DNA from: Acidobacteriota bacterium
GTDB taxonomy: Bacteria; Acidobacteriota; UBA4820; DSQY01
Reading direction: 5' to 3'
NCBI GenBank assembly: GCA_049967655.1
Contig: JBMFSH010000004.1
Location: forward strand, 57,193 to 121,192
Length of the DNA stretch: 64,000 nt
Shown here: positions 9,699 to 15,817 of the stretch, piece by piece
How positions within the stretch are numbered: the stretch's first letter is position 1
Layout: each line of letters begins with the position of its first letter
Notes under the pieces: model-generated
Told to the model about the DNA's origin: nothing
Seen by the model: the letters and a program-made list of their open reading frames with translations, nothing else
Database searches by the model: none
Position numbers and translations under genes: made by a program

Positions 9699-9908
9699 TT
9701 AATGAAAGAGTGTAAACAGCCTGTTGAGCAAACTAAAAACCACCTGATCGACGGCCCAGAGGAAGACGCCGAAGATGATCACCACCACCACAACCACGAG
9801 CGTGGTGTTCACGACCTCGTCCCTGCTGGGGAAGGAGGTCTTCTTGACCTCCAGTCGAACGTCCCTCAGGAATGCCGGCAGGCTCTGAAACCAATCCACT
9901 ATCTTCAC
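9699..9908 (-). CDS. secE: Preprotein translocase subunit SecE
   Basis: GTG 9908 with AAGAGG RBS; FLRDVRLEVKKTSFPSRDEV followed by one transmembrane helix; upstream of nusG. Confidence 0.93.
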   Translation of the reverse strand: MKIVDWFQSLPAFLRDVRLEVKKTSFPSRDEVVNTTLVVVVVVIIFGVFLWAVDQVVFSLLNRLFTLFH

Positions 9909-9942
9909 GGTCGACCTCTTGTGACGGAGAAAAGGGAGAAAG

Positions 9943-10189
9943 TGGCAGGCGAGGAGGGATTCGAACCTACGCGCCGTAGGATGCTCGCTCGCGTCAGAGT
10001 CCGCTCGCTCCGCTCCAACGGCGCCTACGGTTCCCGGGGCGGGTCCCTTGGCTTGCGCCGCTTCGCTGCGAACGCTCGCTCTTCGCTCGCGTCCTCGCGG
10101 CGGGCTATGCCGTGTCCCGCCCTTCGAATCCCTCTCACCTCCTTTCCTATCTTCACCCGCCGGCCCATCCGACGGTTCCGTTTTAAAGT
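9943..10189 (-). repeat. tRNA-linked repeat element: 25-bp duplicate of the tRNA-Trp 3' end plus an inverted copy of the T-arm/acceptor strand
   Basis: TGGCAGGCGAGGAGGGATTCGAACC at 9943-9967 is identical to 10190-10214; the inverted arm TTCGAATCCCTCTCACCT is at 10123-10140; the interior has GCGAGCG repeats. Confidence 0.8.
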
Positions 10190-10266
10190 TGGCAGGCGAG
10201 GAGGGATTCGAACCCCCAACATCCGGTTTTGGAGACCGGCGCTCTACCAATTGGAGCTACTCGCCT
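10190..10266 (-). tRNA. tRNA-Trp (CCA)
   Basis: AGGCGAG acceptor stem, CCGGT-CT-CCA-AA-ACCGG anticodon arm, GTTCGAATC T-loop, encoded CCA. Confidence 0.97.
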
Positions 10267-12706: not shown

Positions 12707-15697
12707 TTAGAAGGTCCAGCGGACGGCCAGGCGGATACGGCGGGCCTGCTGGTGGGCGGTGGGCATCTTGAAGAAGGGGTAGTTTTGGTTCGGCGAGGTG
12801 TTCACCGTGTTGTAAGTCTGGTCCACGGTGGTGGTTCGCTGCTCGTTGGTCACGTTGAAGATGTCGGCGCGCAGGCCCAGGTTGCTCTTCCAGAGCCTGA
12901 AGGTGTACTGAGCGCCCAGGTCGAGGGCCCAGATGGTGGGCGTACGACCAGAGGTGCCGCGCGGCCGGGAGAACCCTTCGTTAAGGCCGTACAGGTCATC
13001 GGCGCCCAGCGCCGAGATGGGGGTTCCGCTCTGAAGGGTAAAGTTGGCCGACATCTCGAGGGGGATGTTGTCGAAGAAGTACCCGCCGTAGAGCTTCAGC
13101 ACGTGGGTACGGTCGTTGGGCAACAGGCCGTAGCCGTTCACCAGGAGCTGGGGCAGGTCGTACTTGGAGGTGATGTTGGGATCGAGCTGACCGTTGTCGT
13201 TGGAGAAGAGGCCTTCGTAGTTGCCCTCCAGGCGCGAGAGGACGTAGGAGCCCTGCATGAGCCAGTTGTGGCTGAAGTGCTTGTCCATGGTGATCTCGAG
13301 GGCCTTGTAGATGCGCACCGGCTTGGGGAACTGCCAGCGATAGCCCGGGCGACCGAGAGGGTCGGGAATCCATATGCCAGCCCACTGGTCCGGGTTGGTG
13401 ACGATGTAGGTGGCCGCGCCATCCACCGAGATGTCCTCGATGATGCGGCCCAGATCGCGGTAGATGGCCCGCACGCCGAGGGAGAGGTCGGGGCGCACCT
13501 CGTACTGGAAGCCGAGGATGTACTCCTCGTTGTAGGAGCCCTTGAGCTTCTTGCCGCCCGGGCCCCCGTTGATCTGCGTCACATAGAGGCCGTTGGTGGC
13601 CGGGTACCCGTAGCGGTTATAACCGAGGAAGGGGATGGTGAGAGCGGCGTCCTCGTAATAGCTGAAGTGGAAGTACTCGTCGGTGAGGGCCCGGATCGCC
13701 ATGTCGTTGGGGATGCGCTCGTAGTACCAGCCCCAGAAGCCGTAGAGCTTGCTCTTGCTGTTGTGGGCTACGTCCCAGGTGAAGCCGACGCGGGGCGCCC
13801 ATTCGTCGTTGATGTTGACGTGGCGCGCCTGGCCGTTGGAATATCCGTGCCCGGGGGAGATCTGATCGGGCACGTTCACGTTGTTGTTGCCTCCAACCAT
13901 GTGGATCTGGTCCAGTCGGACGCCGAGCTTCAGCATGAAGTATTCGGTGAGATTCCAGTTGTCCTGCGCCCAGTAGGCCCAGTAGTGCTGCGTCGTGTTT
14001 TTGGCGTTGTTGTTCATGAAGCCCTGGGCTCGGAACAGGTAGTGCGTCGGAGAGGCTCCGCTGTACTGCCAGCGAATGGTCACGCCCCCCGGCGTGCTGT
14101 GCCCGTAAAACACGCTGCCAGGGTTCATTTCGGTGAAGCTGGGCCCGGTATAGTTGAAGTCGTAATTGTAGGTGATGTCGTAGTACTGCAAGCCGTAGGA
14201 GAGCTCGTGGTTGCCGTAGAACTTGAAGAGGTTGGTCCCCTTCAAGCGGAGCTGGTCATTGTAGTCCCGCGTGTAGTCGCGGATCTGGCCGCCCAACGAG
14301 GGTTTCCACGCGCTCAGGTCGATGAGGTGGTCGGCGGCGTTGTACGAAATGGGAACACCCTCTGGGATGACCTGGTAACCGGCGTAGGTCCCCGAACCAT
14401 AGCGGTAGTAATACGCCCAGTTGTTCATGGCCTCGGCGTTCTTGGGGTAGCGAGCCTGGATCGTGTCCCGGCGGGCCACGACCGTTTCGGTGAAGAAGGT
14501 TGGCGTCCAGGTGGCGTTCCACTGGAGGCTGACCGCGTAGTTATTGTAGGTCTGCTTGAAGGGCGAGGCCGTCTCGACGGGGTTACCTAGGTTCCGGTAG
14601 TAATCTTGGCGGCTGTTATCGCCGAAGACCGAGAGGGCAATTTTGTGGTTCTGGTTCACGTTCCACGTGAGCTTGAAGGCGTACATCGGGTCGCGCGTAT
14701 AGTTCGTGTACCCGCTCGGACCGGCCCACGAGTAGGAGGGATGACCGTTCAGGCTCACGTTGGCGTCTCCGCCGTCGGCCGTCCAGGCCTGCTCCGTCTT
14801 GTTGTAGTCGTAGGCCAAGAAGAACCAGAGCTTGTCCTTGACGAAGTAGCCGCCCAGGAAACCGCCCACATCGTACTGCTTGAACGACTTGGGGTAGTTG
14901 ACGATGTTGGGGTTGTTGAGCTTGTTTTCCTTGGCGCCCAGTCCGTCATCGAAATAGTACGCGAAGATGCCGCCGTGGAATTCGTTGCCGCCGCTCTTCG
15001 TGATGGAGTTGACGTTGCCGCCCATGAGGGCGCCGTACTCGGCGCTCATGCCGCCCGTCTGGACCTCGGTCGCCTCGATAAAATCGAAGTTGAGCGCCGT
15101 GAGGTTGAGGGCGTCGCCCGTGCCGGTCACGTCCACACCGTTGACCGTGTAGACGTTTTCGGGACCTGAAGCGCCTCCAAAGGAGGGCGTGCCGGCCAAG
15201 CCGGAGGTAACGGCGCCCGGCGCCAAAAAGGCGATGTTATTGGCGTTTCGCCCCAGTGGGATGGAGCTGATCATCTTGTCGGAGATGTTGGCGCCGATGC
15301 GGGTGGACTTCTCATCAATGACCGGAGCCGCCGCCGTGACGACGATCTCGGTCTTGCCCTGGCTCAGCGTAAAGGGAAGGCTGACGATCACCCCCAGGGG
15401 TATCTCGATGTTCTTCCGGACCACCGTGTTATAGCCGGGGGCCTCGACCCTCACCTCGTACCCGCGACCGACGGGCAGGTTGGGAATTAGGTAGGACCCG
15501 CCCAAGTCCGTGGCCCCGCCTTGGAACCCTTGCAGGTTGGGTCCCTTGACCTGAATCGTGGCACCGACCACCGGTTGGCCGGTTTCGTCCACGATGCGAC
15601 CCTGCAACCCTCCGTTTTGGGCCTGGGCCCAAACCATCAACCCGGCCAGGCCCACAAAGAGCACGACCAGGGCACTCCACTTGAGTGCGTTCCTCAT
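12707..15697 (-). CDS. TonB-dependent receptor-like outer membrane protein (Oar type, N-terminal carboxypeptidase-regulatory-like domain)
   Basis: ATG 15697 with GGAGGTG RBS; signal peptide; GRIVDETGQPVVGATI domain; plug SAEYG...ITKSGGNEFHG; WAPRVGFTWD; C-terminal Phe. About 996 aa. Confidence 0.9.
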   Translation of the reverse strand: MRNALKWSALVVLFVGLAGLMVWAQAQNGGLQGRIVDETGQPVVGATIQVKGPNLQGFQGGATDLGGSYLIPNLPVGRGYEVRVEAPGYNTVVRKNIEIPLGVIVSLPFTLSQGKTEIVVTAAAPVIDEKSTRIGANISDKMISSIPLGRNANNIAFLAPGAVTSGLAGTPSFGGASGPENVYTVNGVDVTGTGDALNLTALNFDFIEATEVQTGGMSAEYGALMGGNVNSITKSGGNEFHGGIFAYYFDDGLGAKENKLNNPNIVNYPKSFKQYDVGGFLGGYFVKDKLWFFLAYDYNKTEQAWTADGGDANVSLNGHPSYSWAGPSGYTNYTRDPMYAFKLTWNVNQNHKIALSVFGDNSRQDYYRNLGNPVETASPFKQTYNNYAVSLQWNATWTPTFFTETVVARRDTIQARYPKNAEAMNNWAYYYRYGSGTYAGYQVIPEGVPISYNAADHLIDLSAWKPSLGGQIRDYTRDYNDQLRLKGTNLFKFYGNHELSYGLQYYDITYNYDFNYTGPSFTEMNPGSVFYGHSTPGGVTIRWQYSGASPTHYLFRAQGFMNNNAKNTTQHYWAYWAQDNWNLTEYFMLKLGVRLDQIHMVGGNNNVNVPDQISPGHGYSNGQARHVNINDEWAPRVGFTWDVAHNSKSKLYGFWGWYYERIPNDMAIRALTDEYFHFSYYEDAALTIPFLGYNRYGYPATNGLYVTQINGGPGGKKLKGSYNEEYILGFQYEVRPDLSLGVRAIYRDLGRIIEDISVDGAATYIVTNPDQWAGIWIPDPLGRPGYRWQFPKPVRIYKALEITMDKHFSHNWLMQGSYVLSRLEGNYEGLFSNDNGQLDPNITSKYDLPQLLVNGYGLLPNDRTHVLKLYGGYFFDNIPLEMSANFTLQSGTPISALGADDLYGLNEGFSRPRGTSGRTPTIWALDLGAQYTFRLWKSNLGLRADIFNVTNEQRTTTVDQTYNTVNTSPNQNYPFFKMPTAHQQARRIRLAVRWTF

Positions 15698-15787
15698 ATC
15701 TTCACCTCCATAACCTCCGAGATTGCAATACCTTAGGAAACCAACCCCTCTCTTGGGTACACCACCTCCTTTCGACTCAACGGGACC

Positions 15788-15817
15788 ACCGTAGCAAAGG
15801 AGTTTTGGCCGTGTCAA
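15788..15817 (-). promoter_or_regulatory. Putative sigma70 promoter of receptor gene 1
   Basis: TTGACA-18 bp-TACGGT with TG extension. Confidence 0.5.

Follow-up and report, generated by a model that had tools for sequence, protein, structure and literature searches.

The tRNA-Trp(CCA) gene of this acidobacterial genome (GCA_049967655.1) is directly followed by a 247-nt repeat unit. Judged from comparative sequence evidence, this unit belongs with the tRNA-linked repeats (TLRs) known from E. coli and forms among them a new sequence family, one that is unusually rich in covariation and in precise polymorphism. The unit is very probably a mobile element of TLR type. The first-pass annotation of this DNA had proposed a non-autonomous tRNA-targeting mini-element with arms matched to each host, and this reading is borne out: the units are multi-copy, multi-site and polymorphic, and their arms covary with the host tRNAs. 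The family is young and occupies many sites, and its covariation fixes the join, a guide-like arm and a closing helix.

Organization of the Unit behind tRNA-Trp

All positions are those of the window, i.e., the whole stretch of 64,000 nucleotides that was analysed (contig JBMFSH010000004.1), and all features of the unit lie on its minus strand. The tRNA-Trp(CCA) gene (10190..10266, minus strand) is the sole Trp tRNA called in the genome; its neighbourhood on the same strand comprises what we take to be tufA, a short gene, and then secE-nusG-rplK. The downstream gene of 69 aa (9699..9908, minus strand) is presumably secE, a name given from its position and sequence rather than from a family search. 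Directly upstream of the tRNA cluster, also on the minus strand, is an ORF of 1036 aa (12707-15817) that resembles an outer-membrane TonB-dependent receptor.

The unit (9963..10209) is made of a tail, a spacer, an arm and a core, and is the exact stretch missing from empty sites. It opens with the first tRNA tail (positions 57-76 of the tRNA; 10190..10209), which completes the working tRNA, followed by a site-specific spacer (10141..10189) with a hairpin at 10157-10175 and no T-run after it; no intrinsic terminator was found within the 247 nt. Other genera have related spacers at their Trp sites. Next come an arm antisense to tRNA positions 54-71 (10123..10140), whose last three bases are GAA (10123-10125), and the core: hairpin 1 (10037..10122), with a GGGCGGG/CCCGCCC foot, interrupted stems and purine-rich internal loops; a five-base motif 5' of hairpin 2 (10029..10033), which pairs and covaries with the last bases of the unit; and hairpin 2 itself (9963..10028), whose final bases, GGTTC (9963-9967), abut the join. 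The second tRNA tail (57-76; 9943..9962) and then the original flank follow.

The 25-nt exact direct repeat (9943-9967 and 10190-10214, spacing 247), the arm at 10123-10140 and the hairpins described in the first-pass annotation are all present. Across the 3.1-Mb genome there are only two occurrences of the 20-nt tail, about 1e-4 being expected per 250 nt. The arm is perfect over 12 nt (10123-10134) and extends to 10140 with one G-U pair and one bulge; its 12-nt sequence occurs seven times in the 3.1 Mb (about 3e-4 expected per 250 nt). There is no credible gene inside, as had been noted: the minus-strand ORFs 9699-10250 and 10025-10222 that run across the unit are read-through of non-coding sequence, and the insert is missing from relatives with an empty site. 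Separately, the first 10 nt of the secE-like gene (9899-9908) recur in the spacer (10147-10156) at a spacing of 248, nearly in register with the duplication; this may be the trace of an older, longer duplication, or chance.

The genome is fragmented and arrays of units often contain gaps, as would suit an assembly artefact or a one-off duplication. We nevertheless consider this next to impossible, since the same element sits at the same Trp site in a second genome of the genus (L106) and in metagenome loci, contigs bridge its borders, and the covariation is family-wide. In the contigs of four public DNA runs, pieces bridge either flank of the Trp unit and none spans it whole; the summed depth on the core is 8-34x that of the flanks, which is not a copy number, and no circle joint of the 247 nt is listed among these contigs. 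As for RNA, at most 0.08 of the words were contained in any public run.

The Antisense Arm and the Position of the Join

We compared 69 distinct first units, mostly 215-263 nt long, behind 20 tRNA/tmRNA classes. Exact identity to the host tRNA end from position 57 covers at least 20 nt in 59 of the 69 (20 nt at Trp), and in 30 of the 69 loci the exact duplication is at least 33 nt long and reaches the spacer, arm or core. In family f32, identity to the host begins at position 57 for 11 of the 12 units; in the host's family, all six units that do not end in TTC have it starting at 56 or 57. These non-TTC variants place the join, so that GGTTC (9963-9967) has to be counted as part of the element, and 20 of the 25 repeated nt come from the host; the earlier reading of all 25 nt as tRNA-derived thus holds for the 20-nt tail, and the first five bases belong to the closing helix of the element. 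On these alignments, the join of the unit is at T-loop position 56/57, closed by a covarying helix.

For the arm, the 54 extracted units were reduced to 44 unique arm/tail pairs after removal of duplicates, one short arm and one N-containing tail. The arm base facing tRNA position 59 forms a Watson-Crick pair in 44/44 (T-A 22, C-G 15, A-T 6, G-C 1). Over positions 59-65, the arm pairs on average at 6.36 of 7 positions with the tail of its own host, versus 4.56 with the tails of other tRNAs; the pairing fades in the acceptor stem. The arm sequence, as far as these 44 pairs tell, tracks the tail of its host tRNA. Arms end in TCGAA, GAGAA or TTGAA at their 3' side, hence only GAA is invariant; it is the complement of T54-T55-C56.

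In family f32 (L129-L146), the tail and arm, with the terminator, make up palindromes that are near-perfect as far as CCA, which suggests that arms there arise or are corrected by fold-back copying. Some units carry insertions of their own: AT-rich or palindromic repeats lie in hairpin 1 or in the spacer at L035 (a tRNA-Lys unit), L166 and L009. What we take to be group II intron ends are found behind tRNA-Ser(GGA) (G000:C57) and at L010, one of them lying in the spacer of a SeC-site unit.

The Folded Core and the Closing Helix

Compared with shuffles, the 247-nt unit has an RNA fold z of -5.15 on the tRNA-sense strand; DNA folding gives -4.2 for the sense versus -2.2 for the antisense strand. 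A 43-pair consensus structure of the core was scored on 41 units out of the 54. Of its cells, 93.2% are paired, where shuffles reach 77.8% and slid partners 31-49%; two-sided change is seen at 30 of the 43 pairs. None of the 500 shuffles (0/500) came up to this, although these shuffle statistics are overstated because related units are not independent. Changes of the G-U type occur within core pairs. The four GCGAGCG copies (10090, 10079, 10008 and 9992), previously listed as repeats, do exist, but not as independent ones: they are opposite strands of the hairpins, probably facing each other through tandem G-A mismatches.

The closing helix is read from the last bases of the core, which covary with the motif 5' of hairpin 2 (GAAC/GTTC, GGTC/GACC, GGTT/AACC, CTTT/AAAG). 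The last 4 nt are fully paired in 67 of 80 right halves, about five of the 80 being rows that resemble chance matches; of the 15 right halves with an ending other than TTC, nine are complementary to the motif of their own unit, and none to the commonest motif.

The predicted RNA fold of the unit is a stem of about 200 nt ending in CCA. We also compared folds in which the acceptor stem was forced onto the second tail, so that the unit is looped out of the T-loop and its joins are brought together. This looped-out fold beats the normal cloverleaf in 26/26 cases with RNA parameters and in 21/26 with DNA parameters, the cases including two from E. coli and four from f32; one has to keep in mind that these are secondary-structure energies omitting tertiary contacts, modifications and co-transcriptional folding, and that the single Trp gene must still work. 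Within such models, the more stable fold is the one in which the arm pairs with the real tRNA, and such pairing might alter processing or read-through into secE-nusG, as was first suggested.

These folds bear on the kind of nucleic acid that moves. An RNA route, in which the unit, co-transcribed with the tRNA, behaves as a T-loop “intron” that leaves as a linear CCA-ended or a circular RNA and returns to DNA through a reverse transcriptase acting in trans, as with SINEs or retrozymes, would agree with good folding of the transcribed strand only, with the G-U-type changes, with the looped-out fold being lower in every case under RNA energies, with the truncated unit in which arrays often end (duplication of at least 33 nt in 30/69) and with the reverse transcriptase fragments and group II intron start present in this genome. 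No ribozyme family match was obtained, though, and both the precise empty sites and the GNA triloops of sister families fit DNA better, and we hold this route to be unlikely. C-GNA-G triloops, a motif described as stable in DNA (PMC13037366), lie near the join in 10/10 E. coli units and 11/12 f32 units, and in 0/6 right ends of the non-TTC units of the host's family. GNA and GNRA loops are both enriched in the cores of the host's family, so these counts do not separate DNA from RNA.

Copies in the Genome and Distribution among Relatives

With 52 tRNA/tmRNA calls surveyed in this genome, the core of the Trp unit was found in full behind Trp, Leu(CAA) and Lys(CTT) and truncated behind Leu(CAG). 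All four matches lie 32-180 nt from a tRNA, and a profile search of the genome gave no significant copy away from one. Copies at other tRNAs with host-matched arms, as the first-pass annotation had envisaged, therefore exist: the core recurs at Leu(CAA) and Lys(CTT), and the arms agree with their hosts at position 59. A second core lies behind Asp(GTC), and arm remnants, judged by eye, at Ala(CGC), SeC, Glu(TTC), Gly(GCC) and Ser(TGA). Second and third unrelated cores within the same tail-spacer-arm layout are seen at Asp, Gly(GCC) and Trp sites (G000:C7:53196-53700; L156, L157, L292; L107, L108); the Gly-type core starts with bases complementary to tRNA positions 45-53.

BLAST retrieved the core in 24/24 genomes of the same family and in 0/5 that share only the order or class. 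From the rest of the phylum, where 11 genomes were searched, it returned one weak non-tRNA match; this out-of-class match (G032, L026) was dropped, there being no tRNA at that place. The covariance model of the core agreed for the family (24/24) and gave 1/4 and 0/1 beyond it, with 2-23 matches per genome. The exact core motif was found in relatives labelled Acidobacteriota or uncultured Thermoanaerobaculia. A core-independent pattern of tail and arm is present in 43 of 301 genomes of the phylum and in none of the reversed controls: 19/21 in the host's family, 2/4 in the sister family, 18/22 in f32, and three others. Those that were inspected have other cores in the same layout. Young multi-site units mark families f1, f32 and part of f2, and are lacking in f29 (0/24) and f31 (0/19).

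No copy of the Trp-unit core was found in viral contigs, phages or plasmids. The generic pattern gave 22 viral-contig loci, several having the layout with still other cores and the rest being neighbouring tRNAs or chance. Contigs of the viral collections also hold tandem TLR-like units behind tRNA 3' ends (L310-L316, L320, L303, L306), and Ser-type units among viral contigs, with an enterobacterial-looking core, begin at position 57. Matches of E. coli TLRs in the phage, plasmid and viral collections looked like chromosomal pieces.

Filled Sites, Empty Sites and Arrays

The Trp site was compared in 26 nusG loci judged by eye, of which 22 were readable within the family and one was unreadable. 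A unit follows tRNA-Trp in 8 of the 22 family loci, with at least three different cores, and the other 14 are empty, as are three loci of the sister family. Two genomes of the same genus lack exactly the 247 nt (L103 compared with L104 and L105), which provides the empty sites that had been expected in relatives; a second precise filled/empty pair is given by G006 versus G010/G018.

Units number 1-4 per locus. At Leu(GAG), the proximal units of G001, with a different spacer and core, lie above an old truncated unit that is common to G002; in the L298 array, an inner unit carries the tail of another serine tRNA with the matching arm. Such stacks of unlike units and foreign tails inside arrays (L164, L298; L033) fit serial insertion. 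At L282 and L037, the downstream tail is foreign and the arm fits the host, which requires gene conversion and not simple insertion. At Leu(GAG), a 16-nt “extra duplication” was not accepted as a target-site duplication, since the site of this genome may be a deletion.

Cores are mosaics of shared halves. Indeed, this genome and G001 are near-identical in spacer and arm and differ in hairpin 2, and cores must thus have been exchanged. Mosaic cores and the chimeric tails at L037 and L282 would be expected if no dedicated enzyme were involved, i.e., if the unit were an old structured RNA element (a processing signal or a small RNA in the tRNA trailer) whose numbers grow and shrink through slippage, unequal recombination and gene conversion among tRNA tails, its arms being kept matched by selection for RNA pairing or by palindrome correction. 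The near-perfect f32 palindromes, centred on the terminator, the failure to find an enzyme and the stable Hfq- and CsrA-binding RNAs made from 5S-linked E. coli TLRs (PMC8144298) go in the same direction. The patchy presence at 8/22 family Trp sites, however, is not what one expects of an indispensable regulator. Recombination by itself accounts neither for a join that stays at 56/57 across several unrelated cores nor for the invariant GAA, which cannot pair with the end of its own unit in the non-TTC variants. We accordingly judge an explanation without an enzyme to be improbable.

Search for an Enzyme and Proposed Mechanism

No ORF-bearing, autonomous copy was seen in any locus inspected, close-set matches being tandem units or neighbouring tRNAs, and no linked transposase, GIY-YIG, integrase or reverse transcriptase gene was found; the longer, nuclease- or integrase-coding copies once thought possible did not appear among these loci. 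The core is absent from GIY-YIG or Y1 loci of relatives (0/62), none of 30 f32 GIY-YIG loci is near a tRNA, and this genome has no small GIY-YIG gene. With regard to Y1, none of the 3 ORFs of this genome and the 29 loci of relatives carries the core, the search being limited to what Pfam detects. A Y1 gene behind tmRNA (L184) was rejected as the mover, as it has other terminal repeats, which resemble, and only resemble, the TIRYT type of PMC6006769. Small GIY-YIG (Ssn-like) genes in relatives are flanked by clusters of palindromes ending in GTCAT(C/T)C (L055, L057, L058, L078-L080, L082).

The resemblance to an attL/attR pair that was first remarked upon holds for the geometry; no integrase is associated with it, none lies within or beside the pair, the unit has no ORF, and the join is at 56/57. 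A satellite of an integrase, for which the tyrosine recombinase of a helper element would place a minimal attP circle in the T-loop, would account for this geometry and for the precise empty sites, and five tyrosine recombinases exceed the cut-off in this genome, two of them beside tRNA genes. Against it stand the presence of one core at 20 different tRNA tails, a strand-asymmetric folding with G-A and G-U pairs that a double-stranded att site does not need, the lack of a unit beside either tRNA-adjacent integrase and the lack of copies in the phage and plasmid collections; we find it very unlikely.

The mechanism that we favour, with a confidence that stays a little short of even, is that of a non-autonomous element cut and rejoined as single-stranded DNA by an enzyme acting in trans and guided by base pairing. 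When the tRNA-sense strand becomes single-stranded, in a fork or a transcription bubble, the arm would pair with the T-loop and the 3' strand of the T-stem; the invariant GAA would read T54-T55-C56, and the closing helix would present the other end. The enzyme, which could be a Y1/HUH transesterase or a small GIY-YIG single-strand nuclease assisted by host repair, would cut both 56/57 joins, freeing a circle and leaving a clean tRNA gene. The circle would insert again at position 56/57 of a tRNA whose tail is compatible; this would restore the gene and shift older copies further downstream, while recombination would exchange cores between sites and so yield mosaic cores and new tail/arm combinations.

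In favour of this single-stranded DNA mechanism are the occurrence of one core at 20 classes, the covariation of arm and closing helix, the fixed join, the precise filled/empty pairs, a guide layout like that of IS200/IS605, the looped-out fold, the GNA triloops and the stacked units; against it are the absence of an enzyme and of a circle from what was searched, the long hairpins, the foreign downstream tails and the start at 58/59 in K-12. The enzyme acting in trans, if there is one, would amount to a small, site-specific inserter programmed by base pairing, and, if the self-guided reading is true, retargeting would need only a change of tail and arm. The units sit in essential single-copy tRNA genes, whose precursor they can misfold in silico, and they break short-read assemblies at tRNAs.

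Comparison with Known Systems

Like tRNA integrative elements, whose insert is bordered by a full tRNA copy on one side and a partial one on the other (bioRxiv 10.1101/2022.07.05.498093), the unit lies between two such copies; it differs in its length of 247 nt, its lack of an integrase, its antisense arm and the use of one core at many tRNAs. Ssn GIY-YIG systems also combine a small enzyme with a folded single-stranded DNA repeat, and Ssn-like genes occur in relatives; they are flanked there by other palindromes and not by the Trp-unit core, this genome has none, and the Ssn paper makes no mention of tRNA (PMC11893778).

A similar layout is that of the IS200/IS605 peel-and-paste elements (IS608) with their non-autonomous derivatives and of REP/BIME with TnpA-REP: a pair of hairpins, each preceded on its 5' side by a short motif that is complementary to the bases just ahead of a join, together with precise loss and tandem growth. 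In IS200/IS605, each cut site pairs with a short guide that precedes a hairpin on its 5' side (PMC5934647, PMC6006769). The same rule is seen in silico in our unit, where the right end covaries and the left GAA, complementary to T54-C56, is invariant. The hairpins of the unit are much longer (65-85 nt versus 20-25 nt at IS200/IS605 ends), no tnpA is linked to it, and it carries a tRNA tail and a target-matched arm of at least 12 nt; this arm pairs downstream of the cut, whereas the engineered extension of IS608 pairs upstream.

The nearest relatives in layout are the TLRs, 22 repeats of E. coli whose last 18-19 bp copy the end of the upstream tRNA or rRNA; they were described in 1978 and are given as having no known function or origin (PMC8144298). 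The Trp unit and the E. coli TLRs (tyrT/tyrV rtT, lys, arg, proK) share a position directly behind the tRNA, a copy of the host 3' end and a tandem arrangement (1-5 copies for TLRs). In the E. coli loci examined, the tyr, proK, lys and arg repeats combine an antisense arm that matches the host, a core common to them and a helix that stops at the join, with the GAGAA variant of the arm at tyr and proK; none of the three features was found at glyY. The TLR passages of PMC8144298 mention neither arm nor mechanism, and a description of the arm or join of TLR-type units was not found in the openly readable literature. Among E. coli strains, the number of tyrT/tyrV repeats varies from none annotated in one strain to one in three and several in K-12 (L230 versus L231-L233 and L235).

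The acidobacterial units have a different core, are longer (mostly 215-263 nt), start at 57, whereas the E. coli K-12 units begin at 58 or 59, and are found at 20 site classes with precise presence/absence. The Rfam model RtT (RF00391) matches neither the window nor L005, L031, L134 and L141, the E. coli controls scoring 47-138 bits; in the reverse direction, the acidobacterial core model misses the E. coli TLRs. Only tRNA is above the Rfam cut-off in the window, a weak sX4 match (22 bits versus 70) having been set aside as lying over the tRNA and its trailer. With some hesitation, we suggest that TLRs from E. coli to Acidobacteriota might form one class of gene-less, self-guided mobile elements, having a target-matched antisense guide, recognition of the universal T-loop TTC through base pairing, and cutting and rejoining at 56/57 by an enzyme or by their own folded core; the odds seem to us rather against it. 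Join, guide-like arm and closing helix are recognisable in E. coli K-12 loci as well, so that the origin of TLRs becomes testable by point mutations in a laboratory strain. The unit, for which no named family had at first been proposed, can be assigned by its layout to the E. coli TLR kind, and, having the same layout and a different core, it represents a new family of that kind.
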